Shown here: positions 467-28,009 of the stretch, one piece after another
Position numbering within the stretch: position 1 is the stretch's first letter
How the letters are laid out: each line of letters opens with the position of its first letter
From: Amphiscolops sp. MND2022
Taxonomy: Eukaryota
Reading direction: 5' to 3'
Assembly: GCA_964187785.1 (NCBI GenBank)
Contig: OZ076409.1
Span: 4,156,001 to 4,220,000, forward strand
DNA: 64,000 nt
The notes under the pieces: model-generated
Databases searched by the model: none
What the model saw: the letters and a program-made list of their open reading frames with translations, nothing else
Told to the model about the DNA's origin: nothing
Translations under genes and position numbers: made by a program

Positions 467-3184
467 TCAAGAAGATGGAGGAGGAAAAGGATAGTTTATC
501 CGTGAATAGATTTTAATTGGTGTATCCGTAGTAGAGGTGACAAAATTGGTCATTAAAGTGTCATGTTGAGTAGTTAGATTGTCATTCGGATGAAAGTTTT
601 TATGAGTATAATTAGGAAGTGGAGGATGTTGAACAGGAAAGAAAGGAAGTGGAGCAGTTTTTTGGTGGGATTTGTGGTGTCGTTTCGGAAACAAGTTAAA
701 TTTAGGAAATTGAATTTTGTTTGGACGTTTAGTATAGAAAGGTGGAGGGGAAGTAACATCAGTAGAATGATTAATTAAAATTTTGAAGTGTCAATAAAAT
801 TATCTAAGGATTTGGATTTTAAAAGTGTACTTTTGGGTTTTTTGTTTTGAGTCTCATTGAGGTCATTGACCATTTGTGCTGTAAGAACTTTAAAAAAACC
901 ATGTGCTATGGAGTTAAAAATGGTAATATTTTTTTTAGATTATATTTAATAGATATTGTTTTGTAAAGTTTGACAATGAGTGTGAGAGTAGTTTGTACAA
1001 AAAGAATGTAGAAAAGTATATACCACATTGTGTGAGAATATAACAAGGGTATATATCCAAAAAGTGCAATAAAAGCATCTGAAAACCATGTAGGCGTAAA
1101 AAGAGGAGTTAAATTCAAGAGTTTATCATGTAGACCTATACGTAATGTATTGTAAGGATTACCAGACTCTTGAGGGGAATCTGCATCATAATTAGGAGTA
1201 TTAGATGAAATGAAAGAATAGCTAAGAGCTTTGCCTAGTAATTGAAGTGTAGAATCAGAATGTTTAGAAAATAAAAAACGATTCCAAAATTGGTCAAGTT
1301 CTGCATTAGAATATATACCAGCATCTTGAGCTGTAAAAGTGTTAGGGCGTATTGTAGTTTTAATTTGTGAAGGTGTAAACATTAGTGGAGGTTTGCGTTT
1401 AATAGGTTCAGGTCCAAGAATATAAAAATCTTGATCATCTGAATCAGGATCTAGTTCAATAATGTTACGTGGATTATTATCACATGTAATTGGTGTAGCA
1501 TAGTCATAAGTTTGTCTTGTAATGGGATCAACGTACATTAAGGTATCTTTATATGTTTAAAATGGATAGGTATACGATCAAAGCATCGATCAGCTTTGTA
1601 TAAAAAAGATAAAAAATGAAGACAGTCATAAAGCCAGGCGGTTGAGCCTTCAATGTATAAGAAAAAACTTCGATAACCGGTTAAAAGAAAACCAGCAAGT
1701 TGAGGGTTTTGTACTGACATTGCGAGTATTGTAAGAAGTTGATTTCGTTCTAATTCACATATTGTATGAAGAGTATTTAGTTCTTGTACTGTCATTGATC
1801 TAAAAACATGGTTAATAGTGTAATCTATTTTCGTGTTTATATGTGCGTCATAATCAATGGTAGCAAAGTTGTTTGAAACATTAAATGCAGGAAATATAAA
1901 TTTGTTATTTGAAGTGTCCAAAACTATTTTACCAGAAATATATTCATCAATCATAGAATGAGGATTGGGTTGTCCTGTATGCATATTGAAACCATCAGTG
2001 CATGTAACAAAAAGGTCTGAATATTGTGTAGAATAAAGAGGGTCTGGTTTACCACAAAAGGTTTGTGCTGTAGTAAAAACTTCAAATCTTGAAAGTCTTG
2101 GGTTATTTGGATGTTCTGTATGAGGAGCATAAACATAGGGATGTTCTGTACCTTTGATACCAGAAGTTGTTTAATGTTTTATTGACTGTGGAGAATGTAC
2201 AAAAGAGTCTGTTTCAATCCAATATCTATCTTCAATTTTAGTCATACGGCCAATGAAGTCTTGTAATGTGAAAATTAGGCCATAGTCATCATTGAACCAA
2301 ACAAGAGTAAAAGGGGTTTTCGTTGTGGGTTTACAAAAACCATCTGCAAATTAGCAGGGTAATGTTTGTCCATCGATTATCATGTCATTAGATGTGTCAT
2401 TATACGTAAGTTCTACTTCAGAAATTTCTAATCGCCAACTAACTAGGTTGACTTCGAATTGGTGTTGAGCAGGACAGTTATGATAAGGGTTTTGAGTAGG
2501 GTAATATATCCAGTCTTTATCGGCAGGCATAAATGTAAATGTACCTGTGTACATTTTGTTCAATTGGTATACAGTGAAAGGAGTTTGATATTGTTCCAAT
2601 CGTTCTTGAAAATAATGGTCTTCTAAGAGTGTGAAAGGTTTATTGTAGTGGAGGTTGTTCAATATATTATCATTTGTACCATTTAGATGTCTTATAATGT
2701 TTTTACATTCTAATGGATCAAGAGTAACAGGAAGCGGTAATGTATTATGATTCCATACCGTTCTATCAACACGACGGTATTTTACGGAACCTTGAAAGCA
2801 TATTTTCCTTTCTTTCTTTGCATAAGCAACACATTTAAAAGCTTTGATGCGTTTAGCTTTTGCTCGGACATATACACGGGCTTTAACACTTGCGTGTTTA
2901 ATGTCAGAAGGAGCTTCAGTGCATTGTTTCACATTAAGTAAGTTAAATTGTCTCAAATTATGTTGTTTTGCACAGTCATAATGAGAAACCATGAGATTTG
3001 TAATATTTGGATCATCCGATGGAAGATAGTTTTCTGTGTCAGAGGGTGTTATGTGTATTGAAAAGGTGAAGTTAAATAAGTGTAAAAAGAGTATCAGAAT
3101 TGTTTTATATGAGGATGTAAGGAGTTCAAAAAAAGGTAGTATATTTAAGACCGGAGTATGGGTTACAGAATATGATTTTGCCAT
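467..3184 (-). pseudogene. env: env-like glycoprotein of element A (class III fusogen-like), frameshifted, ~900 codons
   Basis: Hydrophobic signal-like stretch, then SHYDC..QC..FKC..IC..LECK, core HTICELERNQLLTILAMSVQNPQLAG, WLYDC..RCFDRIPI..VDPITR..ITC, a TM segment and a long tail. Reconstructed from ORFs 2351-3223, 1538-1984, 906-1538 and 467-694. Confidence 0.85.
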
Positions 3185-4762
3185 AGGTGATAGTAGGTAT
3201 ACTGAGGTCTCGTTCAAAATCAATGTGTACTACTTCAAAAGGAGCAGGAGAAGTTTTATGTTCTATCTTCGAGACGTGAAATATTGGATGTGGATTTAAA
3301 CCTTGAAACTTGACTTTGACTTCTTCAAATTTGAGTTCTAGATTCGGTGTCTGAAGGCGGTTTAGTTCTGTTTCCTTTCTTTTGTGAGATAAGAGATCGT
3401 TGTTTGTAATGAAGCGTTCTGCAAGGATAGGAAACCTAGGATCGTGCTGTGGGTCGTAGATGGTTATACCATCGACTCTAAGAGGATAGTCTGCCAAATT
3501 TGGAGTTGGAGGTCTGGATTGATCTGCAGTATAATATTCAGGTATTCTAATATGTGCGGGAACAGGAGTGGTATTATAACTTCTGGGAAAAGATTTCCGG
3601 AAAGGAATGCAGTCTGAGCGTCTGAGGAAAGTAGAGAAGCGGTTTCAAAACCAGATGTAAAATATGGAGAAGGTATAAAGTCAGAAGATTTTGTTTCAGA
3701 AGACAACGGTTGTGCGTGTTGTCGTAGAAGTCTTATAGTAGAATTGCTAGAAAGAGCAGATAGGGTAAGTGTAGAAGTGTCTGTACTAAGTCTGCGTGAA
3801 GGAAGATCTCGAAGATTATATCTATGATGTGGTACAAAAAGTGAGCATGTTGTATCTTGTGATGGAGTGTATTCTGATGTATTGTCTAAGAGAATTGATA
3901 GTGATGAAGAAGGTTTTCGAAGAGGTTTTAATGGTGGATAAAGTTTTGAAGAAGTAGTACTAAGTTCTGATGGTAATTTCAGTGAAGGTAATTTGTATGT
4001 TCAGTATCAGGGATTTGTACAAGATTAGGTTGAGGTTGTAGTCTAACAGTTTTGATAGCTGTAGGATGTTTGTAGTTTACGTATTGTTCAACACTTTCAG
4101 GGTTTGGTATGTGTACTAGAGGTTTATTAAATGGGGTTTGTTGAGTACGAGTGTTTATAGGTATTTCAGTTATAGGTGGTCGATAAAGGAGTGATGAAGA
4201 TGTTGTTTCAGAAACGTATGATCTTGGTCTTTTAGAAGGAGTAGTAGGAGTTACATTACTAGAGTTTGTAGTGTTTGATACTGAAGATTCAGGAGTAGAA
4301 GGAATACTTGGAGCTGATGGAGATCTATCAGAGGAAGAATCCAGAATTCTTGAAAAGTTTTCAACAGGTTATCTTTGAGATAACTTGTTATTGATTATCT
4401 TTTAGTCAGCTGTAGTGACTAGTTTTGAGTGAGCCAGTGGATAGAATGATGAGGCTACAGTTTTGAGGGTGTAATAAAAAACTATATTCTAATTTGGGTT
4501 GTTGTCGTGGTTTATAAGTAGTTTTAGTAGTTCTGTGAATTAGAGGAGGAAGTGAAGTTGTTTGGTGAAGAAGAGTGTCTTGATTTGTCACTAGGGATAT
4601 TAGTGTGAGGGGTGTTAATTATATGCCTATATAAGGAGTTGTCATTGGATGAGGAAGTTAAAGACTTGTCATTGGATGTTGTAGATGGTGTATTGTGATT
4701 GGACGTACTAAATGATGATGGTGTCACAAATGTTTGAGAAGAATTATCTGTTGTGGATGGTG
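3126..4762 (-). pseudogene. Post-integrase S/T/P-rich tail plus unknown globular domain X
   Basis: Low-complexity reading frames after IN including an RYNLR motif (~3820); the frame stays open into 3706; domain X (ADYPLRVDGITIYDP...LKYTTFF) ends at 3126. Confidence 0.55.
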
Positions 4763-6040
4763 TCATGAATGTTTGAGAATCTTCGTCTGATAAGGATTCG
4801 TCTGAGTTAAAAGAGAAGAATCACTGTTTGCATATTTGGTAGGTTGTGGAATTTGGAATTGCGTTGTGTCTGAAAAGCGCATGAAACTACGCAAATGTGG
4901 ATATAAGAGTGGTTCGTTTGGATAATATTGAATTAAATGATTTCTTTGAACATGTATTGTAGAGCCATCTTGTGCAAGTAGTTCATATGTAACATCTGAT
5001 AGTCTATCAAAAATTTTGTATGGTCCAATCCGAAGGGGTTTTAGTTTGTCAGAAAAATGTACGTGTTGGAAATTGCGTTTTAAAACAAAGGTGCCAATAG
5101 GAAGGGGTTTACCTTCGTGGTAAGTTTTTGTAATGTATGCGTGTGAATTAATTTTTCGTAAAGTGTTTTCGTATACTGTAGGATAAATTTGTAACATAGC
5201 AGTTTCTACAGCGAGAAACCAATGGGGAATGGGTTTTGAAAGTGTTTCTTTAAAAAATGGGTTAAGAACTGATTTATCATAGTGGGAGTGTTCTGGAAGT
5301 TGAGAGCAATAGCGTGAAATACATGTTTTAGAGGTGTCTCTATTAAGATTTAAATCGAACGTAAGGGGTATTCTGGGTCTGGTGTGGAAAACAATTTCAT
5401 GAGGAGAAATACTGAGTTCTGAAAGTGGTTGTGAATTATGTGCATAAGCGTACATATGGACTTGGAATGCCCAATCTTTAGGTGTGTCATGTAGGAACAT
5501 TCGTAGATGTGTACCAAGATTTCTGTTTTGTACTTCGACAAGGCCCTTTGTCCAAGGAGAGTAAGCTGTTCTAGGAGAATGACGAATTCCCATTAGTGTA
5601 CAAAGTTGTGCCATTTCTTTATTGACATATTCTGATCCACGATCAGTAACAAGATATATGGGTGGTCCAAATTTAATAATCCAATGGTGTAAAAGAGTTT
5701 TGATAGCAGTCTTTGCGTTGTTTGATTCGATGGGTACTGTAACAACAAAGTGACTAAAAGCGTCAATTATGACATGTATATATGATTTGTTGTGGGAAGG
5801 AGGATTAATAGGTCCTTTAGTATCCATTGACTTGCGGTAATTGAAAGATGGAGCATGTTCTGAAAAGGATTGTGTAGGAGCAGTTTGAATTTTCATGTTG
5901 AAATGTTTATTGCGTTGACATTCAATACAGTCGTGTATAAAAATGGAAAGCCATTTTTCAACAAATGGAATGTAGTAATATTGTGCGAATGTATTATATG
6001 TAATTTTGATGCCTGTATGAGAGTGTTCATGAAGTTTGTT
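4763..6040 (-). pseudogene. pol: Integrase of element A
   Basis: HEHSH...DCIEC zinc finger at ~5910-6040; MDTKG, VTDRG and GLVE with exact D-35-E spacing; GPY module (IGPYKI...TYEL). Confidence 0.95.
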
Positions 6041-6949
6041 TAAAACAGTTTTGAAGAGTCGAAATGGAAGACATATTCGAATAATAGCGCGTACAAAATC
6101 TGGAGTAAAAGATTGATTTAGAGTAGTAGGGTGTTTATTATAAAGGCTAATAAGATTTGTGGAGTCATCTATAAAAAGTTCTGAAAATCTTTTGTAATAG
6201 GCATGTAGGAAAGGAGTGCCAGTGATAAGTGGTGTTAGAGGTTCAGGTTTTTCATTTTTATTGATCCAAGAATAAACAGTTCTAAGAACCGGATCTTGGG
6301 ATTGTTGTTGTTGAAGTGTTGTTATGTCTAATGAGTAATCATCTGGGAGAAAAAAACCTTGAAAACAGTTTTTGTACTTGAAAAATGATGTATCATAGAA
6401 AGGTATAATCTGTGGACAATGTGTGAGAGATGGGAGATTTGGTTGTACATTTATTGCAGAAACAGATTTTTGTGAAGTATTTCGGGTTAATTTGTTAAGA
6501 GTAGAATAGTTTTCTGTTTGTAATGTTGTGTCATGTAAGAAAGAAGAGTCAGATTTTGGAATTCTGGTATATATATATATATGATCTTCATCATCACTTG
6601 TAATGTCAGTATCATTGAGTAAAAGAGATTGTTGATGAAATGTTTTATTGTTCTTTTTTATAGGTGTTTTGAACTTGGTTTGAAAAGGAGTTATAGATTC
6701 GAATGAAAAGGATTGTAAAGGTTTAACAACAATGTCGTTTCTTTTATCATTGATACGAATAGAGAATTGATCTGTACCATAATCAGCAAGGATGGGGTGA
6801 GAGTCATTTTTTGATGAGGTAGGATTTCTTCATGTTTAATTAAGTAATGTACAGGTTTAAGAGTGCCATCTTGTAGAAGTGCAAAATCAATTTGTGGTGG
6901 AAGTTGTTTATGTTTTATTGGTTGAGTTGTAGTTCAGCTTTTGTAAGAG

Positions 6950-8500
6950 AGCGACTTAACATGTCGGCAACAGAGAGATTTTTTCCAGGGGTGTGAATTA
7001 TTTTGAGTTTTGAAACTTTGTTACATGCATTTGAGCTCTGTAAAAACGAGAACTAAGGTTACCTTTTTCTGCAAAACAATGTAATAAGGGTTTGTGGTCA
7101 GTAAAAATGTGTATTGGATGGAGAGAACCAATGATAAGAAATTCATAGATTTGAAGAGCATGTACTATATCAAGGAGTTCTCTATCAAGTGTGGAGAGTT
7201 TTTGTTCTTGAGGGTTGAGTATACGAGAGTTGTACGATATAACTTTCATTTTGTTTTGTTCATTTAAATGGAATAGGACAGCGCCTAATCCAATAAGGGA
7301 AGCGTCAACTGTAATAAAAAATGGATGTTTTGTATTTGGTATTGTAAGTTCTGTTTCAGAAGTGAGAGACATTTTAAGTTTTTGGAAAAGACTTTCGTGT
7401 TCGTCTGTCCATTTCCAAGGAGTGTTCTCATGTAAAAGATCGTAAAATGGTTTGAGATTAATATGTAATTTTTCAATAAATTTGGTGTAAAAATTGAGTG
7501 CGCCAAGGAAACTCATTAGGGCAACTTTGCCAGTTGGAGAAGGGATTTTATGGATAGCTGCAATTTTCGAATGGATTGGTTTAATTGTATTGTAACCAAT
7601 TTCATGTTCAAGAAATTTGACTTTGAGAAGCATGAAAAAGGATTGTGTTTTGTACTGATATATATGTAATTGTTCTATGAGTTGGAACATGTGTTCATTA
7701 GAGTCAGATAAAAGTAGTATATCGTCAATGTGAACAAGAGCAAAACCTTGTTCTATAAGAGTTTTAAAGAAGGTAGACATTTGTTTTGTAAAGAAGTTTG
7801 GGAGTCTTTTGAGACCATAAAAGCCTCGGATGAAAGTAAAAAGTTTATCTCCTGAGGAGAAACTGGTAAGTTTAATAGTGTCTTCATCAAGAGGTGTATG
7901 TGCATAGGCATACATAAGATCAATAGCAGATTTGTACTTTTTGTTTGCGCGTGCTAATTGTGGAGCGAGAGGTTCAATAGGCCAAGATTCATCGGATTGT
8001 TCTGTATTGGAATTAAGATGTTGAGCGTCTAATACACATTTTATGGTATCTCCCTTGGGGATTATAATGAGAGGGTTTAAATAAGTTGTGCCATAGACGG
8101 GTTTGTCTTGTGGAGAGGAACCAATTTGTTTGATAATGTTATATTTTTCGAGTTCTTTGAGAAGTACATTAAGTTTGTTTCGATAGTGAATAGGGACTTT
8201 AGAAGGACGTTGTGTCATAAGTTGAGCATTAGGTTTAAGTCGAATACGGAAGGGTGTTGAAATTTTTCCAACATCGTTTTCATGAGTTGCATAACATGTT
8301 TTATACTTGAGTAACATATTGCAAAGAGTAATGTATTCGGTGTCTGTAAGGTCAGAAAATTGGAAGTTAAATTTATTAATAAATTTCAGATTTTCAGAAG
8401 TGTATGGTAGAGAAGGGAAAATGCGTTTTTCGGAAGTATGAGAAGTAGGCTGAACGTTATATAAAGGAGAAGTTTGATTTGGAATGTCATCATTTGTCAT
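6950..8500 (-). pseudogene. pol: Reverse transcriptase and RNase H of element A
   Basis: AIDLMYAY, RGFYGL, HIDD (YIDD mutated), RNase H motifs TVDASLIGLGAVL, DRELL, FTDHKPL and ADMLSR. Confidence 0.95.
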
Positions 8501-8630
8501 TTAAATTTGATGTAAGGAAAATTGAGGAGGAGGGGTTGTAGGATCATCGTATTGTACAATATAGTTAGTTTGTGGAACTGGTTCAGTGATTTCAGGATGG
8601 TAGGTATAAGTAACATTATGTATAAAAGTG

Positions 8631-10760
8631 TTAATATATAACTTGGAAGAATTTGGGTTTTTCATTAGTAATTGAAACTTCAATGTATCCAATATGTCCT
8701 GTAGGTAGTGTTGCAACATGTTTCGAGGTGTTTTGGATGATAGTTGCACAAATATCTGGTTTGTCATCAGTGAATACTTCAATAAAATTGAAATTTGTAC
8801 GAATTGTAGTAGCAAAATAGGTATGAGGTACTGAAGGGAAGAAGTGGTTTTGTGGTGTAGTTGTAAAATGGAGGTTATGATAATTTTTCATTGGAAAGTG
8901 TGCAATTTTGAAGACTTGGGTCTTAGACGTATTTGAGTCTTTGAATTAATTCTATAAATGTAAAAGAAATTTGGATAATTTTTAGATAGGACTGTTGTGA
9001 ACTTTGCATAATTTGGGTGTGTTTTTGATTGGTATTTGAATTCGAGTGTAAAGTCTTGTATGTTTATGTTTTGTATATTGTCTTCAAAGAAGGGTGTACC
9101 AAGAATATTGTACTTGATATCGGCTACTGCAAAAGGTACTGAAAAGTAACGAGAATTTTTGTCAATAGTGGTGCTCAAAATTATATTTGCATAATGTAAA
9201 ATAGGAACTTCAGTTTGGTTTGCAACGGTTAATGTTTTGGAATTTCGAGTTGGTCCAACATCAGAATTGTGATTTGATTTGATATCCAAAAGTTTGGTAA
9301 GAGTTATGTATGTTGGGTAATTTAATACAGAAATGGAAGCACCGCTATCTAGAAGGAATGCAATTTCCAATCTAGATGGGTTGTCCCTTTGTACTATACT
9401 TGATGGTGTATGTACATATAATGAATAAAACCAACTTGTAGGTGTGACAGCATTTGCCATTGCTGTTGGGTGATACATGTGTACTTCAAATTTTATAGGG
9501 TCAGATTGGTCTCGTTGTTGTATCATATTAATTTTGTTTCTGGAATTGGAGTGCGAGCGAGATCTAGAAAATCTAGAGTCTCTTGGTCTTGAAGGTGGTC
9601 TGTATGAATTTGTATATTTTGTGAATTTGTTGTCTCTGGAATAGGAGCGTGATCTGTATCTGGGACGAGAGTTGTGTCGATATGGGGATCTATATGAAGA
9701 TCTGTAGGGAGAACGGTAGGACCGGGAATCACGTTTGTATGTATCATATCGTGATCTAGAGTAGTGTGGAGGAGTAGTACTTTTGTCATAACTAAATCTA
9801 TCTCTATCTCTAGATGTAGAACGGTATCGATTTTGTGAATAGTTTTTATTGTAAGAGTTGTCTCTTGAGGTACTTCGACTTCGGTATCTATTATCATAGT
9901 GTTTTGTTCTATCATTGGAAGGAGAACGGAAGTACTGTACAAAAGATTTTTGTGGAGATTTAGTTTGAGCATATGCTTCTCGTTTGTCTTCATCATCTCG
10001 TTGTTTTTTGAAACAAGCAGAAATGGAATGATTTGTTCTATGACAGTATGAGCAATATTTCTTATATGCAGGTTTAGTTTTGTTATTTGGATCTTTCGGT
10101 TGTGTAAACATAAGTTGTTCTTGAGATGAAGGGTCAAGAGTTTGAGTGTTCAATTGTTTTGTAATATAATTAATTTCAAGTGCAAGATCATGTGTTCTGA
10201 TTTTGTCGTTTGCAAAATCTTCAGCGTCAACAAGTTTTGTTAATGTATGAAAAGGAATTGAAGGTTCTAAAACAGTGGAAGTGTGTTTTACTTGCCTTTT
10301 GATGGCAAAGTCTTTAAGATTTTTTGGAAGTCCTTTTGTAAAGATTTCATTACATTTAAGGTTATTAGTGGATGCATTCTCATTACACCAGCCTTTTTCA
10401 ACCAGCTGTTGAACTTTGAGTGCAAAATGACGTACTGTTTCATTATCTTTCTTGCTTAAATTAAGGGCTTCAACTTGAGCATAATAAGCGTTCTTTTGTG
10501 AGGAAAATTGTTTTTTTGAAAGCTTGTACAAAAGCGTGCCAATCGTACTTGTAGGTGTCGTTTAAACGAATGTATCAACTAAGTGCTGTACCTGTTAAAG
10601 AGCATTGTATGAAAGCCATGCGACGAGCGTGCCAAAATTTATAATCATGTTCTGATGTAGGTTGTAAACCTAAGGAAAATGTAACACGTGCGTCAATATG
10701 CTGTAAATATTCTTCAGGTGTATAATTATGATCTAGTCCATCAAAAGGTTTAATGGGTTC
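8631..10760 (-). pseudogene. gag: Gag capsid, CCHC knuckle, RS-rich tract, aspartic protease and post-PR beta domain of element A
   Basis: IKPFDG..EEYL, LTGTAL, F.KGLP capsid motifs; CSYCHRTNHSISAC; LLDSGAS and NILGTPF in the same frame as Gag (ORF 8888-10531). Confidence 0.93.
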
Positions 10761-12658
10761 TGATATAGAAGTAGAAGAGTTGATATATGTTGGGTGTGAT
10801 ATAGTATTATGAGATATAGTAGATGGTGGTGTTGTATTGTAAGTGGGATTGTTTGAAATATTAGTTAAGGAAGTAGTAGAAGTGTTATGAAAGTGATGGT
10901 TGGTTCTAATTGTTGTTGTAGGAGGATTTTGTATTTGAAATTGAGAAGTTTGTAATGTAGGTGTGATTGTATTAGGCGTATGTTGAGAAGAGGGAGTGTT
11001 TAATGAATTGGGTCTGTTGTAATTTATCTGAGATTGTTGTGTATTACTTGGATTAGTACTTGTGAGACTGTACGATAATGGATTAGTTAATATAGTTTGT
11101 AATGGAGGTCGAAAAAGTTGTCTGGCAGTGGTGTATTTAAAGGATGGGTTGGAATGAATGGTATTAATTTTTAAGGTAGGTTGTGTAGTTTGTACTGGGT
11201 TACTTTGAGCTGGAGTATAGGTTGAAGTTTGTATTTCAGAAGGTGATGATGGCGTTGGTGTTTGAAAATGTACTGTATTGGTGTTTTGTGTAATATTGTG
11301 TGTATTTGATGAGCTTTGTTGAGGAGAATCATGGGTGTTTATCTGAGTTGAGAACTGAGGTGGAACAGATTGTGGATTATAATTTAATTTCGAGGAGATA
11401 GTACTTGTGTCTGAGAGGGTTGTGTTATATTAGTATTGGATGTAGATAAAACAGAGGTATTGTCTGGATTTGTAGTTAAAGTGTTGTCTTGGTTTTGGTT
11501 GTTAAATTCGTTTTGTGGGATATTGTGGGTAGAAATTAGTATAAGATTTGAATCATCAGTTATTGTAAAACTTCGTGTATTTTGTACAGTTTCTTCAGAG
11601 AATTCTGATGTATCGTGAATTGTAGTTGTTTCAGAAGGATTTGGTTGTTGTATATCTGAGATTTGTGATAGTGGTGGGTATAGTGGCTGTTCTTGAGGAG
11701 GATCAGAATTTTGAAAAAGGTTAGTAATGGTTTCTTGTTCTGATTGTTCTGATTGTTGTCTAGTATATAAATGTTCAACATTAGAGGTTTGTTCTTCAGG
11801 AGTAGTTTCAGGAGAAGTATCGGATGTAATAAAAGGTCGGTTATCTGATGTTTCAGCATGTTTAAGCAAAAAGTTGTGTTCTAAGTTTATTTGTTTAAAA
11901 TGTGTAACACTAAATGATGTAAGATCTCTGTAGTGTAAATGTTTGTTTTCATTTTTTATTATGTATGGTAAAAGTTCTATGTGTGTTAGTATTTGAGGGA
12001 AGTTAATGTAAGCTTGTTGATCTTTTTGTTCCCAAAGTAATTGATAGTTAAATCTAAGAAACTTTAATAGGAAATGAGTAAAAATTTTGACTTGAGGTAG
12101 AGTGTCATCCGTAAAAATAATGTTGTTAAAGAATCTGTATTGAAAATTTTTTATTTGTAAGATATCTCGTTGTAGCCAATAATGAGGGTTATCATGTGTT
12201 TGAACTTTTGTGTCAAGATCGGGGACCTCGAAATATTCAGATCTGTGTCTTAGTTCTTGTAGGTGAGAAGGACGATAAAGTGGTGTGTCTTGGTTTTCAT
12301 TGAATTCAATCAGTTTTTGCATGTATGTGCGAAAAACATCTTGTAAAGAAAGGGTAATATTTTGTGGGTGAATGGTTCTATAAAATGTTCCAGAGTTTAT
12401 TCCTTTAACTGGGTTAAAAATTACTTGAAAAGGAGTTTGTGATGATGTTATTTCAAGTGTTTTATATCGAATGTAATAAAGGTAAGAATCACAATGTCCT
12501 CGTGCCAATGGAATAGTATGTACTGTATGGGGTTCTGTTTCGAATGGAAGTGGATTTGAGTACTGAAAGATGATGTTATTTAGGAAAGGTGTTACATTTT
12601 GTATAAGAGATCTATTTTGTCTTTTTTCTGTAGTTAATGTAAATGGAGTGGGAAGCAT
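10761..12658 (-). pseudogene. Long N-terminal Gag extension: conserved ~280-aa domain plus S/T/Q/P-rich linker
   Basis: ORF 11384-12658 is conserved with B 26290-26985. Comparison with B (SPRQNYDPP) shows the stop at 11384 comes from a frameshift, so the frame originally continued towards the capsid. Confidence 0.75.
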
Positions 12659-12673
12659 TATATGGTATAAAGT

Positions 12674-12907
12674 TTAGTTAGTATAATAAGATTGCCATAA
12701 AGGATAGATGTATTGGAAAAGAAGATATTTTGTATTAAATTGTGAATTATATGGTAATATTTGGTCTATGAATACAATGTGTAAGAAAATTGTAAGTACT
12801 GTACTTAGGAAAAGAAGAAATGGATTTTGTGTATATTGGATAAGTGTATAAAAGGTGTGGTAAATACTAAGGAGTCCAAAAAGAGGTAGTACTATACTTG
12901 TTAACAT
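12674..12907 (-). CDS. uORF2: 77-aa hydrophobic peptide with two probable TM helices
   Basis: Intact in A and in B (27077-27307) with the same start and stop and mostly conservative changes. Confidence 0.7.
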   Translation of the reverse strand: MLTSIVLPLFGLLSIYHTFYTLIQYTQNPFLLFLSTVLTIFLHIVFIDQILPYNSQFNTKYLLFQYIYPLWQSYYTN

Positions 12908-12926: not shown

Positions 12927-13049
12927 TTAAAATTTTGGTATGAATGAAATTAAGAATTTGTCAAGAAAAAGTGCAAGACCGGCAACGATAGCAATAAAGA
13001 ACCAAAGGCAGACAATGAGCTTAACTACAGTGTCTACTGAAGGCGGCAT
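12927..13049 (-). CDS. uORF1: 40-aa single-TM micropeptide (below the ORF-track cutoff)
   Basis: MPPSVDTVVKLIVCLWFFIAIVAGLALFLDKFLISFIPKF*; same length in B with synonymous and conservative changes. Confidence 0.7.
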   Translation of the reverse strand: MPPSVDTVVKLIVCLWFFIAIVAGLALFLDKFLISFIPKF

Positions 13050-13463
13050 GTACAATAAAGTTCTTTTAAAAGTATGTTAAAAAGGTTGTAAAAAAATTGG
13101 TAATATAAGTGTATGGCAAAATGAAAGTTATATAAAGAAATATTTGATACATTTGTTATATATTATAATTGTTATGTATTTGGATCCGTAAACCAGTTTT
13201 GAAAGAGTTTTGTATGAAGTTTGTACTTTAGGAGAGAGAGAAAAAGAAGTGTTATTATGGTGTTATGTAAGAAATATATGTTATATAGGTGTGCCAACTT
13301 TAAAGTTGATCCTAGCGGCTAGAACCAAAGAGTTTTTTACTAGCAGGAATCGCTGGATAGCACTGTAGAAGGGCCAACACGTATCGCACGTCTGCGGTTG
13401 GAACGGAAGAAAGAGAAAAAGCCAACACGAATTCACTCAGAGGTGGTTGGAACGAAAAATTTC

Positions 13464-13595
13464 ACTGACAGGAATTACGCGAATAAACGTAGTCAGAACC
13501 AAGAAATATGACTGACAGGAATTACGTTGAGAAACGCAGTCAGAACCAAGAAGTGTAACTGACAGGAATTACGTGAAAGGACGTAGTCAGAACCA
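13464..13595. repeat. 47-bp tandem repeat x~3 in the element A leader
   Basis: actgacaggaattacg...gtcagaacca units start at 13464, 13511 and 13558. Confidence 0.9.
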
Positions 13596-13776
13596 TAGCA
13601 ACACGAATCAATTTCGAAGAGAAATTGGTTGCAACGTTGAAGTTAATAACGGTAGGCAATATTGAGAGGTGGAGAAACTGTGTGTCGAACAAAGAGATAT
13701 CGGATGAGAAAGTCGAGAAAAGGTGTACAAAAATTGTAGAGTTGTGAAATGAATGGGAGAGAAAGAAGAATTTTCT

Positions 13777-13787
13777 TGGTTGCACCA
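13777..13787 (-). promoter_or_regulatory. Primer-binding site of element A (partly degenerate)
   Basis: TGGTGCAACCA on the minus strand, 2 nt after the LTR-terminal CA; B has TGGTGCGACCA. Confidence 0.75.
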
Positions 13788-13789
13788 AC

Positions 13790-14202
13790 TGAGCTGTTAA
13801 AAAGGGTGGTGGTTGTTTCTTTTAGATGTTTTATTACGGACATAAGAAGTCTAAGATTTTAACAGCGGGGTAGTCTTCCTTTATGCCTTGTAGCTAGCTA
13901 GTTCTAAGTACAATCTATTTCTGAGATCTCAGTTCTTGAAGTGCTAGAGAGAAGACTGATCGTCAGGATGAATTCTCAATTTCTCCGAGTAGATATATTC
14001 TATTAACTAGGGTAGGTTTCATCAATTAACAATGTGACAGCAACAGGATGAATCTAAGAAGCTTGTTAGAGGATATATTAAATGAAGTTTCTTCTAGAAT
14101 AATTAGCTTTCAGATAAGATTACATTTGTTAATTATTTGGACTAAGAGTTCAGATAATTTCTGAATTATAGAATCTTTGAGGACATGCATCATGGCATCA
14201 CA
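13790..14202 (-). repeat. LTR shared between A (as 5' LTR) and B (as 3' LTR), 413 bp
   Basis: TGTGATG...CAGCTCA on the minus strand; homologous to 27598-28009 with the same boundaries. Confidence 0.93.
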
Positions 14203-15177
14203 ATCAACCGGGAATTTGAAAATTAAAATTACATATATGCACTTTGGGTTTGAGGAGTTCCAAATGTTTTTGTTTCAGATGTGTTATGCATGGGTTTGTT
14301 TCATATGTGGTTTGCATGAGTTTCGTTTTATAATGTACCACACTTAAGGAGTGAGAACAACTAAAGACGATTTTACTTCTTACGTCATAGACGATTCAAT
14401 TGGTGCAAAGGTTCTAGTTTCTTTCAGTTTCGTTGACTGACAGTTTCGTTCAAGTTATTGTTGACAACTATTTACTATAACTATGTACATTTTCATGTTC
14501 TTTTTTCGTATCAGCCAACGGCTTGTTTGAAAAAATTTCACCAACATGAATTAGACAGCATGAAAATCTTTTTCAAGTTGAATTAAAGCGTGATGTAACA
14601 ATGAGTTGTGAACCAACATTGGCGGGTTTGTGAACCAAAAGTGAAGAAGTTTTGAAAAGTCAAGGTTGAAGTGAGAGTCCATTTTCAACAAAAGTGACGA
14701 GTAGAGCAGAAGCAAGAGAATTGAAAGCAAAAATCTTTGACAACTGCAAGTTTCAAACATCAAAAAACTCGAAGTGAAGAAGATGTAAAAAGTTTTGAGA
14801 AAATGTTTGGGAATGTTTTTGGGGAAGTAAAATAAAAGGTGTAGAACATGTTTTGTAAAAAAAAAAAACATTTTTTGTCAAAAATCTTAGGAAATTTCTT
14901 GTACAAAAATCTTAGGAAATTTCTTGTACCATAGGTAGGACTTGTGTTCTGTAAAAGATGGGAATTAAAGATGTATTGTATAGATGTATTATACACTTGT
15001 ATAGAAGTATTATACACATGACAATATAAATAGAAGTTTGTGGTTAGAGGATAAATATGGACGCAAATTTTGAAGGGTTACAAAGATTAGATTAGCGACT
15101 AATATGGGCAATTATAAGATTAAATATGAGTATGTACTGTTGAGGTTAAATGGGGGGTAAGATTATACACTGTATCT

Positions 15178-15330
15178 GAGTTACAATTTAGTTAAAATTG
15201 ATTACAATGGGTTACAAGTTAGTTAAAATTGACTATATTTTTACAATTGAGTTTGGAATTGACTATAATGAGTTACAAGTTAGGTAAAATTGACTATATA
15301 CATACAGTTTAGTTTAAAATTGACTAGATT
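15178..15330. repeat. Degenerate ~31-bp tandem repeat x~5 (second copy ~18039-18190)
   Basis: Recurring gttacaa(g/t)ttagttaaaattga(c/t)ta units. Confidence 0.75.
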
Positions 15331-15680
15331 CGAATCGCATTGTTTGAAATTTGGAGGAGAATTCAGTTCATCGAAGTGAGAAGACCAGTCAAGGAGTCGA
15401 CGATGTAGTGGCTGCCGCAAACACAGACCAGTGAAAAGGCAGGTTGAAAAAGTAGAAAGACCAGTGACAATGACAAGAAGAATGTTGGCAAAGTCGAAGA
15501 ACCCAGAGTGTGGATGGATGATATTGACCATCTTGTGGGTGTGCAGTGAGAATTGTCAGCGTGTGTAGGAGAAGTTTTTTTGGAGGAGTGATCAACAGCT
15601 ACATCTCAGACATCATTGAAGAAAGATGATGGAATCAAGAAGAGATCTATTTGAAGAGTGATAAAATGTAAGTAGAATGT

Positions 15681-16097
15681 TTAATTGTATGGAGCATGTT
15701 GTTGAGGTGGATGGGCCTGATGTTGGTGAGGGTCATAGATTTCTAATTTCTGTGTGTACCCAAAACTTTGGAGCATTTCATTGAATGCGTCAGTGGCTTC
15801 TTGTAGAGCAGCGTGAAAATAATGATCTTTGGAAGTGAATGCGGAGTTTAACACAAAAACGACATTAGAAGCCGTTTCACAAACGGCAATTTTTGGTCCA
15901 GCAACATGAATTCTTGAATTTTGTTCAAATGTGATGCGTTTCTTTTTGATTTGTGCGACATTATACAGAACTTTCAGAAAGGCAATAGGAGATTTTGGCG
16001 TTATTTTGTTGTTGTTGATTTCCAGCGAAAGTTTATAAGCCATTTTATGAAAGATAGCTGCTTTGAGGCTATGAGCTTTTGAGTGACTGGAAGTCAT
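15681..16097 (-). CDS. 3' accessory ORF5, 138 aa, unknown function
   Basis: ATG-initiated ORF with globular-looking composition on the element's sense strand. Confidence 0.55.
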   Translation of the reverse strand: MTSSHSKAHSLKAAIFHKMAYKLSLEINNNKITPKSPIAFLKVLYNVAQIKKKRITFEQNSRIHVAGPKIAVCETASNVVFVLNSAFTSKDHYFHAALQEATDAFNEMLQSFGYTQKLEIYDPHQHQAHPPQQHAPYN

Positions 16098-18535
16098 AAT
16101 AATTATATCTTCTACCTTCTACTTCAGCGTTGGGGGCCATTTAGAAGACAAAGAAAGAGAAGTGGAGATGTTCTGAAAGAGTATGGAAGGAGGACGAAGA
16201 AGAATGGATGTTTCTAAAACAAACGAAGTGTAAGGAATTTGACAACGACAATGGAAGAGAAGTACAATATAAAAAGGTGCTATAATGTATCATACATATT
16301 TTGTGCTATAACGTCTTGTATGTCTTGTGCCATTGTTTATGTGTAGTTTTTTAGACAAAAATAGTTATTTTTGACATGTACTCTAGGAAAGAAGTATGTA
16401 TTTTAAAAATAGTCCTGAGAATTCATTCAGAAAAACAAGGTATTCCCTTGACTAAGTAGGTAAAAATGTATGTACCTTTGATATAGGGCCAAAGATGTAC
16501 CATAGAGTGTACCAGAGAAGAAAAATTAAGAAATTTGTATTACCTGTAGTAGAGTTTAATGAAGATTAGTTGAGTTAAAAAGAGTAGTTATAGTTTCCAA
16601 AGCAGATTGAATTGCTTGGGATGATTGAGTAATGCGTTGAGAGTCTCTAGATCGAATGTTTGTAGGAGTTTGTGTGTTCTGTCGTAGCAGTGTAGTATAT
16701 GTGTGAGTGTTGTGATAGGTGTTTCAGAAGGATTTCGTTTATTTGGTTCTAGTAAATTTGTCATGTCTCGAAGTGCTCGGTTGTTTAATACAGAGGAAAG
16801 TGTGTCAGGAGTGTTTTTTATAGGTGAAGAGTGTGATTTATGTTCGTTTTTTTGTTCAGCTTGTACCATAAAGGAAATAGTTTTTGCAGAAATGAAGAGG
16901 AGTTCATTGTAGGAGTAGGTTTGTTTGTAGTGAATGTATAAATTTAGTATACGTTTGATGATGAGTAGCGTTTTGTGAAATAGAAAGGAAAGATGGATCT
17001 GATTCATCTGTTTTGATATCGTAAATAGATGGGCGGAGAAAGTTGAATTGGAGAGAGAAAATTTTGACTCCGTTATCAACCCAATATTGGTATGGACCCA
17101 ATATTTCGGAAGCGATTGAAGTGAAAAAGTCTTGGTTTTTGTCATACAAGCGAAGCGAATAGTCGGTAGGATGCTTATAGAGAGAAGTTAGTAGTGATTT
17201 AAAGATGAAATCATCATGAGAAAGAAGTGGGATCAAATGATCATCACGATTCGTGCAAAGCGAAATTTTTGAAGGTATTGAAGGAGGATATATTCGTTGA
17301 CTGACAGTTTCGTTCAAGTTATTGTTGACAACTATTTACTATAACTATGTACATTTTCATGTTCTTTTTTCGTATCAGCCAACGGCTTGTTTGAAAAAAT
17401 TTCACCAACATGAATTAGACAGCATGAAAATCTTTTTCAAGTTGAATTAAAGCGTGATGTAACAATGAGTTGTGAACCAACATTGGCGGGTTTGTGAACC
17501 AAAAGTGAAGAAGTTTTGAAAAGTCAAGGTTGAAGTGAGAGTTCATTTTCAACAAAAGTGACGAGTAGAGCAGAAGCAAGAGAATTGAAAGCAAAAATCT
17601 TTGACAACTGCAAGTTTCAAACATCGAAAAACTCGAAGTGAAGAAGATGTAAAAAGTTTTGAGAAAATTTTTGGGAATGTTTTTGGGGAAGTAAAATAAA
17701 AGGTGTAGAACATGTTTTGTAAAAAAAAACATTTTTTGTCAAAAACCTTAGGAAATTTCTTGTACAAAAATCTTAGGAAATTTCTTGTACCATAGGTAGG
17801 ACTTGTGTTCTGTAAAAGATGGGAATTAAAGATGTATTGTATAGATGTATTATACACTTGTATAGAAGTATTATACACATGACAATATAAATAGAAGTTT
17901 GTGGTTAGAGGATAAATATGGACGCAAATTTTGAAGGGTTACAAAGATTAGATTAGCGACTAATATTGGCAATTATAAGATTAAATAAGAGTATGTACTG
18001 TTGAGGTTAAATGGGGGGTAAGATTATACACTGTATCTGAGTTACAATTTAGTTAAAATTGCTTACAATGGGTTACAAGTTAGTTAAAATTGACTATATT
18101 TTTACAATTGAGTTTGGAATTGACTATAATGACTTACAAGTTAGGTAAAATTGACTATATACATACAGTTTAGTTTAAAATTGACTAGATTCGAATCGCA
18201 TTGTTTGAAATTTGGAGGAGAATTCAGTTCATCGAAGTGAGAAGACCAGTCAAGGAGTCGACGATGTAGTGGCTGCCGCAAACACAGACCAGTGAAAAGG
18301 CAGGTTGAGAAAGTAGAAAGACCAGTGACAAGAAGAATGTTGGCAAAGTCGAAGAACCCAGAGTGTGGATGGATGATATTGACCATCTTGTGGGTGTGCA
18401 GTGAGAATTGTCAGCGTGTGTAGGAGAAGTTTTTTTGGAGGAGTGATCAACAGCTACATCTCAGACATCATTGAGGAAAGATGATGGAATCAAGAAGAGA
18501 TGTATTTGAAGAGTGATAAAATGTAAGTAGAATGT

Positions 18536-18952
18536 TTAATTGTATGGAGCATGTTGTTGAGGTGGATGGGCCTGATGTTGGTGAGGGTCATAGATTTCTA
18601 ATTTCTGTGTGTACCCAAAACTTTGGAGCATTTCATTGAATGCGTCAGTGGCTTCTTGTAGAGCAGCGTGAAAATAATGATCTTTGGAAGTGAATGCGGA
18701 GTTTAACACAAAAACGACATTAGAAGCCGTTTCACAAATGGCAATTTTTGGTCCAGCAACATGAATTCTTGAATTTTGTTCAAATGTGATGCGTTTCTTT
18801 TTGATTTATGCGACATTATACAGAACTTTCAGAAAGGCAATAGGAGATTTTGGCGTTATTTTGTTGTTGTTGATTTCCAGCGAAAGTTTATAAGCCATTG
18901 TATGAAAGATAGCTGCTTTGAGGCTATGAGCTTTTGAGTGACTGGAAGTCAT
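18536..18952 (-). pseudogene. Second copy of ORF5 with a nonsense mutation
   Basis: CAA>TAA at 18808 relative to the 15681-16097 copy. Confidence 0.55.
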
Positions 18953-19442
18953 AATAATTATATCTTCTACCTTCTACTTCAGCGTTGGGGGCCATTTAGA
19001 AGACGAAGAAAGAGAAGTGGAGATGTTCTGAAAGAGTATGGAAGGAGGAGGAAGAAGAATGGATGTTTCTAAAACAAAAGAAGTGTAAGGAATTTGACAA
19101 CGACAATGGAAGAGAAGTACAATATAAAAAGGTGCTATAATGTATCATACATATTTTGTGCTATAACGTCTTGTATGTCTTGTGCCATTGTTTATGTGTA
19201 GTTTTTTAGACAAAAATAGTTATTTTTGACATGTACTCTAGGAAAGAAGTATGTATTTTAAAAATAGTCCTGAGAATTCATTCAGAAAAACAAGGTATTA
19301 CCTTGACTAAGTAGGTAAAAATGTATGTACCTTTGATATAGGGCCAAAGATGTACCATAGAGTGTACCAGAGAAGAAAAATTAAGAAATTTGTATTACCT
19401 GTAGTAGAGTTTAATGAAGATTAGTTGAGTTAAAAAGAGTAG

Positions 19443-20448
19443 TTATAGTTTCCAAAGCAGATTGAATTGCTTGGGATGATTGAGTAATGCGTTGAGAGTC
19501 TCTAGATTGAATGTTTGTAGGAGTTTGTGTGTTCTGTCGTAGCAGTGTAGTATATGTGTGAGTGTTGTGATAGGTGTTTCAGAAGGATTTCGTTTATTTG
19601 GTTCCAGTAAATTTGTCATGTATCGAAGTGCTCGGTTGTTTAATACAGAGGAAAGTGTGTCAGGAGTGTTTTTTATAGGTGAAGAGTGTGATTTATGTTC
19701 GGTTTTTTGTTCAGCTTGTACCATAAAGGAAATAGTTTTTGCAGAAATGAAGAGGAGTTCATTGTAGGAGTAGGTTTGTTTGTAGTGAATGTATAAATTT
19801 AGTATACGTTTGATGATGAGTAGCGTTTTGTGAAATAGAAAGGAAAGATGGATCTGATTCATCTGTTTTGATATCGTAAATAGATGGGCGGAGAAAGTTG
19901 AATTGGATAGAGAAAATTTTGACTCCGTTATCAACCCAATATTGGTATGGACCCAATATTTCAGAAGCGATTGAAGTGAAAAAGTCTTGGTTTTTGTCAT
20001 ACAAGCGAAATGAATAGTCGGTAGGATGCTTATAGAGAGAAGTTAGTTGTGATTTAAAGATGAAATCATCATGAGAAAGAAGTGGGATCAAATGATCATC
20101 ACGATTCGTGCAAAGCGAAATTTTTGAAGGTATTGAAGGAGGATATATTGGTGAAGAAAGAAAGACAGGATCTTTCATTATTTCGTATCGCTTTTTTGGA
20201 GGAGGTGGCGTTGCTTGTGTATGATCAGTATCATCAGGTCGAGTAACAGTTTTTGGATTTTCGTGTTCAACTTTTGTATGTTCCATTTGTTCAAGAAAAT
20301 TTGGAGGTGTTTGTTCAGAAGTCTCGATATAGAGAACGGGAGAATCATATAAAAGAGGTCTGGTTGTGAGATCAGCGGTTGCTTGTTCAAGCTGTTTTTT
20401 TAGATCAATTTGTGCTTATTTTTGTAGGTCAAGTTGTGCTTGTGTCAT
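19443..20448 (-). pseudogene. Post-env accessory ORF4 of element B (possibly continuing into the overlapping 19443-20000 frame)
   Basis: ATG at 20448 matches A 193; early in-frame TAA; ORF 19759-20286 continues it. Confidence 0.55.
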
Positions 20449-27076: not shown

Positions 27077-27307
27077 TTAATTAGTATAATAGGATTGCCA
27101 TAAAGGATAGATGTATTGGAAAAGAAATTTTGTATTTAATTCAGAGTTATATGGTACTATTTGGTCTACAAAAGCAACTTGTAGAAAAATTGTAAGTACT
27201 GTACAGAGAAAAAGAAGAAATGAGTTGTGTATATATTGTATCAAAGTGTAAAATGTGTAATAAATACTAAGTAGTCCAAAAAGAGGGAGTACTAAATTTG
27301 TTAACAT
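27077..27307 (-). CDS. uORF2 of element B, 76 aa hydrophobic
   Basis: Counterpart of 12674-12907. Confidence 0.7.
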   Translation of the reverse strand: MLTNLVLPLFGLLSIYYTFYTLIQYIHNSFLLFLCTVLTIFLQVAFVDQIVPYNSELNTKFLFQYIYPLWQSYYTN

Positions 27308-27326: not shown

Positions 27327-27449
27327 TTAGAATTTTGGTATAAAATGTATTAAAAACAGGTCAAGAAAAAGTGCAATACCGGCAACGAATGCAACAAAGA
27401 ACCAAAAACAAACAATTAGTTTAACAACAATGTCTACTGAAGACGGCAT
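27327..27449 (-). CDS. uORF1 of element B, 40 aa hydrophobic
   Basis: MPSSVDIVVKLIVCFWFFVAFVAGIALFLDLFLIHFIPKF*. Confidence 0.7.
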   Translation of the reverse strand: MPSSVDIVVKLIVCFWFFVAFVAGIALFLDLFLIHFIPKF

Positions 27450-27597: not shown

Positions 27598-28009
27598 TGA
27601 GCTGTTAAAAGGCGTTGTGATGTTTAGTTTTGGATCTTTTAAGGATGACATAAGAAGTATGGACTTTTAACAGCTGAGTCGTCTTACTTTTAAGTCTTGT
27701 AGCTAGCTAGTTCTAAGTTCAATCTATCTGAGATCTCAGTTCTTGAAGTACTAGAGAAAAGACCGATCGTCAGGATGAATTCTTATTTTCTCCAAGTAGA
27801 TATATTCTATTAACTAGGGTAGGTTTCATCAATTAACAATGTGACAGCAACAGGATGAATCTAAGAAGCTTGTTACAGGATATATTAAATGAAGTTTCTT
27901 CTAGAATAATTAGCTTTCAGATAAGATTACATTTGTTAATTATTTGGAATAAGAGTTCAGATAATTTCTGAATTATAGAATCTTTGAGGACATGCATCAT
28001 GGCATCACA
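27598..28009 (-). repeat. 5' LTR of element B, 412 bp
   Basis: TG..CA termini, followed by the PBS; homologous to 13790-14202. Confidence 0.93.

Follow-up and report, generated by a model that had tools for sequence, protein, structure and literature searches.

Small open reading frames (ORFs) for transmembrane (TM) proteins, with low dN/dS, have been described 5' of gag in Drosophila elements of the MDG1 group and in 105 arthropod consensus sequences (10.1101/2025.03.14.642691). In the available part of that report, fly MDG1-group elements carry two small ORFs before gag, and one TM protein accompanies the capsids into the oocyte. The sORF2/FAST-like proteins are recognised there as ORFs of 60–210 aa with a single TM segment, a juxtamembrane polybasic patch, an ectodomain of 10–50 aa (about 30) bearing an amphipathic motif, and cell-cell fusion activity; the MGxxxS/T N-myristoylation motif is missing from two of six fly sORF2s. 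A second group of related elements, the "ancient errantiviruses" (PMC13524379), are Ty3/gypsy elements of multi-copy young families with the order gag-pol-env and an env of the chuvirus/gB type (PF24664); according to the available text, the mechanisms by which gB-type errantiviruses outside flies exit and enter cells remain elusive. Burro and Ogre, as far as they are described in the accessible part of PMC6431247, are large gypsy elements with accessory ORFs, and Burro env shows homology to mononegavirus fusion proteins.

Here we analysed 64,000 nucleotides of DNA from Amphiscolops sp. MND2022 (the window), in which a short hydrophobic ORF, sORFa, precedes gag in an env-carrying element. The locus resembles MDG1 sORF1/sORF2, as available to us in 10.1101/2025.03.14.642691, in having small sense-strand ORFs 5' of gag that combine a single TM segment with an amphipathic tail and show low dN/dS. 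However, sORFa departs from the sORF2/FAST-like type in several features. The peptides here are 37–48 aa long as against 63–107 aa in sORF2, they have neither MGxxxS/T nor a polybasic patch, their N-terminal end counts about 5–10 residues instead of ~30, env is present in the same element, and two to three hydrophobic ORFs are found instead of one. The elements share with the ancient errantiviruses all the features named above, but differ from them in being ~18 kb long with six or more extra frames; the main text of PMC13524379 makes no mention of small ORFs, accessory genes or ORFs upstream of gag, and the PBS-like motifs were not found in its supplement 1. Like Burro and Ogre, they are large and possess accessory ORFs. 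In Burro, however, env is packed in one polyprotein, and the accessible part of PMC6431247 is without a membrane-micropeptide cassette. A literature search, which reached few subscription papers and no bioRxiv supplements, found no account of this small-ORF cassette.

Current work regards sORF2, a small TM protein, as an alternative to Env, and the clade studied here keeps env together with a micropeptide cassette of another design. An initial annotation of this DNA had called such a peptide unusual for Gypsy elements. This holds for its co-occurrence with env and for the multi-ORF cassette, whereas small TM ORFs before gag as such are already known (10.1101/2025.03.14.642691, in the part available). 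Published screens filter for a length of 60 aa and for myristoylation, which such ORFs do not pass, so that they may be widespread and yet have been missed.

Two tandem elements in the window

The window contains two related Ty3/gypsy elements, A and B, arranged head to tail on the (-) strand with one LTR common to both (Table 1). This LTR is taken as the 3' LTR of B because the bases preceding it match those found in a young copy just before its 3' LTR. Gag begins with the 424-aa ORF that follows the small ORFs. Both elements are decayed: gag-pol and env of A are fragmented and its 3' end is cut off, and B lacks most of pol and has a leader shorter by ~590 nt. Therefore sORFa is best read there as inherited, and the functional evidence rests on the family.

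Table 1. Positions of the features in the window and of the pol-env frames in three family loci
Feature	Position	Strand	Remarks
sORFa, copy A	12927..13049	(-)	40 aa, 123 nt from ATG to TAA
sORFa, copy B	27327..27449	(-)	40 aa, 80% aa identity to copy A
sORFb, copy A	12674..12907	(-)	77-aa hydrophobic ORF; 19 nt after sORFa stop, 15 nt before gag ATG
sORFb, copy B	27077..27307	(-)	76 aa
sORFz, copy A	13643..13843	(-)	66-aa ORF; begins in LTR, crosses LTR end and PBS-like site
LTR shared by A and B	13790..14202	(-)	413 nt, TG...CA; serves B as 3' LTR and A as 5' LTR
5' LTR of element B	27598..28009	(-)	
PBS-like TGG stretch	13776..13787	(-)	2 nt past LTR end
gag-pol of element A	4524..12658	(-)	Split into several ORFs
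gag ATG of element A	12658	(-)	A at -3
RT/RNase H of element A	6998-8500	(-)	Pfam
Integrase of element A	4763-5896	(-)	Pfam
AUG-poor stretch, pol-env interval of element A	3185..4523	(-)	
env of element A	906..3184	(-)	Fragmented; matches PF24664 Monjiviricetes_fusion in Pfam (gB/chuvirus type)
Met-less pol-env frames	L098:800-2062, L159:1281-2711, L160:745-1755		

The initial annotation, which had described copies A and B of sORFa as each keeping an ATG, 40 codons and a TAA, is borne out on the (-) strand. The two copies are 82% identical in nucleotide sequence and differ at 18 codons, 10 of them synonymous (including all five synonymous changes that it had named) and 8 replacement, which corresponds to an NG86 dN/dS of 0.21. 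Its description of the replacements as mostly hydrophobic-conservative applies to half of them (L15F, I19V, I21F and L25I) and not to P3S, T7I, K31L and S35H. The upstream leader had been said to align poorly. Across 60 copies the segment at about 13060–13260 is indeed variable (60–83% identity), but 13260–13500 is conserved (82–91%) and a further conserved ORF, sORFz, lies beyond it. Part of the poor alignment is due to the shorter leader of copy B.

Some minor features of the window may be recorded here. Short tandem repeats are present in the leader at 13430–13600 (-) and also in the sister subfamily, possibly as regulatory or packaging sites. No purine-rich tract was seen immediately 5' of the 3' LTR (14203–14225, -), either in B or in one young copy. 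GC skew over positions 1–28000 is about +0.2 to +0.65 on the + strand, which makes the sense strand of the elements G-poor, and the 3' region of element B (within 14429–20152, -) contains a tandem duplication of 2.86 kb at 98.7%. A search for relatives of the integrase found none among IMG/VR and phage records.

The host clade and its young families

Judged from domain content and gene order, the host is a ~18-kb, env-carrying Ty3/gypsy clade with an env of the gB/chuvirus type. Its organisation is best seen in the young sister subfamily C, in which the LTR pairs are 99.8–100% identical (three of three copies read). An element of about 17.9 kb begins with the LTR, followed by a 66-aa ORF begun inside the LTR, a 39-aa sORFa, a 78-aa sORFb and a single gag-pol frame; the 3' part consists of a 420-codon Met-less frame, a 908-aa env, a 473-aa ORF, a 159-aa ORF and the LTR. 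The LTRs measure 415 nt, and 4-bp target duplications flank both copies checked. Pfam domains occur in the order Retrotrans_gag, RVT_1, RT_RNaseH, Integrase_H2C2 and rve, the check having covered domains other than protease, and the 908-aa ORF matches PF24664 at 80.6 bits (cut-off 27; E=9e-23). Two distant young families, F and G, were reached through relatives of env. They are about 18.5 kb long, have the same back half as C, and are 74% (F) and 78% (G) identical to it in RT-RNase H. In the 1.07-Gb genome a first look gave over 2,000 candidate matches to the sORFa region, a figure which is not a copy number.

The Met-less open frame in the pol-env interval is homologous in three distant families, where it spans 420, 477 and 337 codons. 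The stretch is depleted of ATG (3 observed vs 12.9 expected, P=0.001), and the pattern suggests a non-AUG or spliced gene with leaky scanning to env. Two further ORFs lie 3' of env, of 430–495 aa and 122–212 aa across three families (14429–20152 (-); L098:4946-7253); a Pfam scan, made for one of these families, gave no match to them.

Selection on sORFa

For the codon model, 135 loci were sampled, of which 90 have an open sORFa, representing 69 distinct sequences. Over all branches (GY94, 69 distinct open copies) omega is 0.46, and omega=1 is rejected (2dL=51). When the same pipeline was applied to 68 copies, omega was 0.48 in frame and 1.22–1.71 in four of the five other frames; the antisense frame that shares its third positions with sORFa gave 0.60. 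In all nine non-coding leader windows omega lies between 0.79 and 1.42. The proposal of the initial annotation that the peptide is selected thus agrees with the dN/dS measured across family copies, and sORFa is open in 23 of 24 copies of the young subfamily C.

The proportion of open copies depends on how the copies are chosen. Selection by DNA likeness to A or B, which is biased towards intact copies, gave 47 open of 60, and selection on env alone gave 18 of 19 (20 were fetched, one missing the region). Among 50 mostly older loci selected on sORFb, a homologue of sORFa is present upstream in 48, and 17 are open with an ATG, one of them frameshifted. In the 45-aa homologue of sORFa, two sub-lineages of family F are separated by 17 synonymous and 6 replacement codons; in its 37-aa neighbour the numbers are 18 and 4. 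Third positions account for 17/25 and 19/24 of the differences. Codon-level comparison across the family thus confirms sORFa of copy A as a real micropeptide gene under purifying selection.

Some observations speak against strong constraint. The contrast between shared and singleton changes reaches significance in sORFb and sORFz (p about 1e-7) but not in sORFa (34/50 vs 34/87, Fisher p=0.07). The sORFa copies of two young subfamilies, at 68% nucleotide identity, differ in 25 codons, with 20 replacements and 5 synonymous changes. In the comparison with the sister subfamily, sORFa is only 51% identical, against 89% for RT-RNase H. What appears to be constrained is length, hydrophobicity and register, more so than sequence identity.

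It could be argued that the segment has no coding function and is conserved as an RNA structure or by recent descent. Packaging and dimerisation signals usually lie in the 5' leader, where sORFa is located. However, the third-position bias and the omega near 1 of the non-coding leader windows largely refute this reading, Rfam returned no match at E<=1, and we consider it barely credible.

Neighbouring small ORFs and translation of the cassette

Three conserved small ORFs (66, 40 and 77 aa) precede gag, and sORFa is the second of them. Its length is constant at 39–48 aa whereas the spacer to sORFb ranges from 18 to 108 nt and falls in all three frames, which identifies sORFa as a separate gene. 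A fusion of sORFa with sORFb was rejected on the same spacer evidence, and the fusions found in databases resemble lost stops or frameshifts. A role as signal peptide of Env is also disfavoured, because Env has its own N-terminal hydrophobic segment (splicing, judged by eye only, may occur).

Both neighbours are themselves selected. sORFb (omega 0.36) is under stronger selection than sORFa and has two hydrophobic segments in the sister subfamily. sORFz (omega 0.55, neutrality rejected with 2dL=39) is truncated in copy B by the leader deletion and has a 60-aa homologue in family G (0/1000 shuffles). In most copies of four subfamilies the ATG of sORFb lies 249 nt 5' of the gag ATG and in frame with it, despite a moving stop; in other copies it is out of frame with gag, and some spacers contain stops. 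Readthrough from sORFb to give a membrane-anchored Gag is possible but unsupported.

A pyrimidine occupies base -3 in 69/69 sORFa, 67/67 sORFb and 57/57 sORFz starts, whereas A is found there in 84/86 gag starts; the copies are related, so that these counts amount to few independent observations. The weak AUG contexts of the small ORFs and the strong context of gag suggest leaky scanning or reinitiation. In family G, the peptide has A at -3 and abuts gag, which points to reinitiation there. AUG depletion in the leader is modest, one family having 7 AUGs where 12.6 were expected (P=0.07) and another having 8 where 17.6 were expected (P=0.009). For MDG1 fly elements an unspliced full-length RNA is described in the available part of 10.1101/2025.03.14.642691. 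The simplest reading of the cassette would be that the RNA carrying gag is translated by leaky scanning or reinitiation.

The weak AUG context and the position before gag would also be expected of a regulatory uORF that merely dampens gag translation, its peptide being incidental and hydrophobic through the U-rich strand (the leader is about 38% T). The moderate omega of 0.46 fits this as well, although that value is presumably raised by post-insertion decay on terminal branches. A scanning brake would, however, need neither a third-position excess, nor a fixed span length, nor an Asp/Glu-Lys/Arg register kept across families, nor the second tandem TM peptide found in family F, and such a role is very unlikely.

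Anatomy of the peptide

The layout of sORFa consists of a short, often acidic N-terminal end, 19–23 uncharged residues, an Asp/Glu usually followed by Lys/Arg, and a tail. Copy A has a short acidic end, 19 uncharged hydrophobic residues, Asp-Lys and a short, moderately amphipathic tail; in two decayed copies the uncharged span is reduced to 13 residues. All 19 aligned peptides are 37–48 aa long with about 5–10 residues before the uncharged span, and each has one span with a Kyte-Doolittle 19-mer maximum of 2.3–3.2. The tail of 8–19 residues has a hydrophobic moment of 0.40–0.64 in 13 of the 19 peptides and below 0.40 in the other six. It contains 0–3 K/R, and its net charge, taken across at least the first 11 residues, is -1 to +1; given the small charge difference across the span, the topology is uncertain. 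L27 is nearly invariant, no polar residue of the span is conserved across families, and a small-residue face (A20/G20...G24) is present in the subgroup of the window. AlphaFold2 predicts one helix (residues 5–36, pLDDT 85). The uncharged stretch and the predicted single helix agree with the membrane peptide proposed in the initial annotation.

Homology searches with the peptide were largely empty. Pfam gave no family at E<=0.1 for sORFa of copies A and B and only weak, unrelated matches for the 19 peptides; PDB sequences gave three matches at E 0.75–1, which are not meaningful, and Foldseek against viral folds gave one at E=9.5. The ESM Atlas held no usable match to sORFa, and matches to sORFb were under 0.8. 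Searches of protein databases with profiles of sORFa and sORFb retrieved 10 and 38 unnamed proteins, apparently copies of the same element family.

In influenza AM2/BM2, too, a TM helix precedes a short amphipathic one (PMC6679168, in the part available). The analogy is one of layout only, as sORFa has no sequence match to these proteins, lacks HxxxW and a long cytoplasmic tail, and is under half their length. The description "viroporin-like" in the initial annotation gains no positive support: neither HxxxW- nor YxxxK-type motifs are found, and the peptide, though it has one TM helix, is shorter than the ~60–120 aa given in that source for viroporins, which have 1–3 TM helices and form ion-passing oligomers of 4–6. 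More generally, the peptide might oligomerise into an ion-leaking pore, as would be allowed by its one hydrophobic helix, which contains small residues and ends in a conserved Asp/Glu-Lys/Arg. The length of 37–48 aa, the lack of a span polar residue conserved across families, and the fact that searches of Pfam, PDB sequences and viral folds returned no viroporin make a pore decidedly unlikely. HxxxW and YxxxK are specific to influenza channels, so that their absence from the alignment does not speak decisively against a pore. A four-copy complex prediction scored 0.01, which counts neither way.

Likewise, the position 5' of gag, one TM span, an amphipathic tail and purifying selection recall sORF2 (10.1101/2025.03.14.642691, available part) and would suit a minimal FAST/sORF2-like cell-cell fusogen that offers an Env-independent route between cells. 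However, Gly2 is absent from all 19 peptides, the tail has too few basic residues for a polybasic patch, the N-terminal end lies at or below the lower limit of the ectodomain range, and the whole peptide is shorter than 60 aa. Moreover, env is present, whereas sORF2 and ENV never occur together in 249 drosophilids according to the accessible part of PMC13486581. A fusogen is therefore highly doubtful, and the suggestion of a fusion cofactor, taken in the FAST/sORF2 sense, fails on the published length, myristoylation and polybasic features.

Membrane micropeptides in other families

Family F carries a clear homologue of sORFa, a 45–48-aa peptide open in five of six loci (0/1000 shuffles, also when hydropathy is preserved). 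Next come a 37-aa TM peptide, in 6/6 loci, and a 78-aa hydrophobic ORF, in 5/6, the stop of which overlaps the gag ATG as TAATG. In family G, a single 37-aa TM peptide lies 1–4 nt 5' of gag (30/30 loci). The family shows no match to sORFa or sORFb, and its peptide is homologous to the second peptide of F (0/1000 shuffles). Kinship of the 37-aa peptides with sORFa is borderline, the score being reached in 28 and 57 of 1000 shuffles, and that of the 78-aa ORF of F with sORFb was not demonstrated (395 and 16 of 1000). The family G peptide is the same in all 150 matches scored; among 30 of these, chosen for protein identity, there are 17 DNA variants, and 13 codons show silent changes. Every family read thus keeps at least one predicted TM peptide before gag, though not always the same one. 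As family G has the 37-aa peptide only, sORFa itself may be dispensable.

This gain and loss among families, the fast divergence and the two tandem TM peptides of family F would also be in line with a host-facing peptide. Retroviral Vpu and paramyxovirus SH offer a comparison for such a role, in which the helix would bind a host membrane protein so as to eliminate a restriction factor or to modulate a pump or a signalling protein, and the small-residue face seen in the window's subgroup would suit helix packing. Yet the synonymous excess within lineages is strong, no sign of positive selection was seen, a tail of 8–19 residues leaves scant room for the recruitment of adaptors, and the tight spacing to gag would better fit a stoichiometric role. 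We regard a host-facing peptide as rather unlikely.

Possible function

The reading that we prefer, with a probability of roughly 0.4, is that sORFa provides a Gag-coupled membrane accessory factor which would act in assembly or exit at the membrane used by Gag and the gB-type Env for budding. Ribosomes would reach sORFa and then gag on the same RNA, by leaky scanning or reinitiation. The peptide would insert with its N-terminus out and its C-terminus in, the Asp-Lys/Arg pair closing the span and the short amphipathic tail resting on the cytosolic leaflet. In the last and weakest step, it may shape or organise the budding site through curvature, scission or Env sorting; a role in cell fusion is not envisaged because Env is present for that. 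Co-translation with Gag and the helix-plus-amphipathic-tail design would suit a helper at the budding membrane, and the egress cofactor named in the initial annotation is a plausible candidate role. The peptides are short enough for synthesis and stand-alone assay.

More tentatively, and with less confidence than for the function of sORFa itself, it is possible that the host represents a "complex" enveloped clade of Metaviridae. Like complex retroviruses or influenza, such a clade would make its own dedicated 37–48-aa membrane micropeptides (a budding or scission factor, or a pore), their translation being coupled to that of Gag. It would also carry a gB-type Env, a gene without AUG and two further accessory genes. 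This would amount to a third membrane route, different from Env alone and from FAST-like sORF2.

The env type P0222 is about 63% identical to all four families, and its best match in this genome reaches 62–65%; given this env type, the clade probably extends into another assembly.
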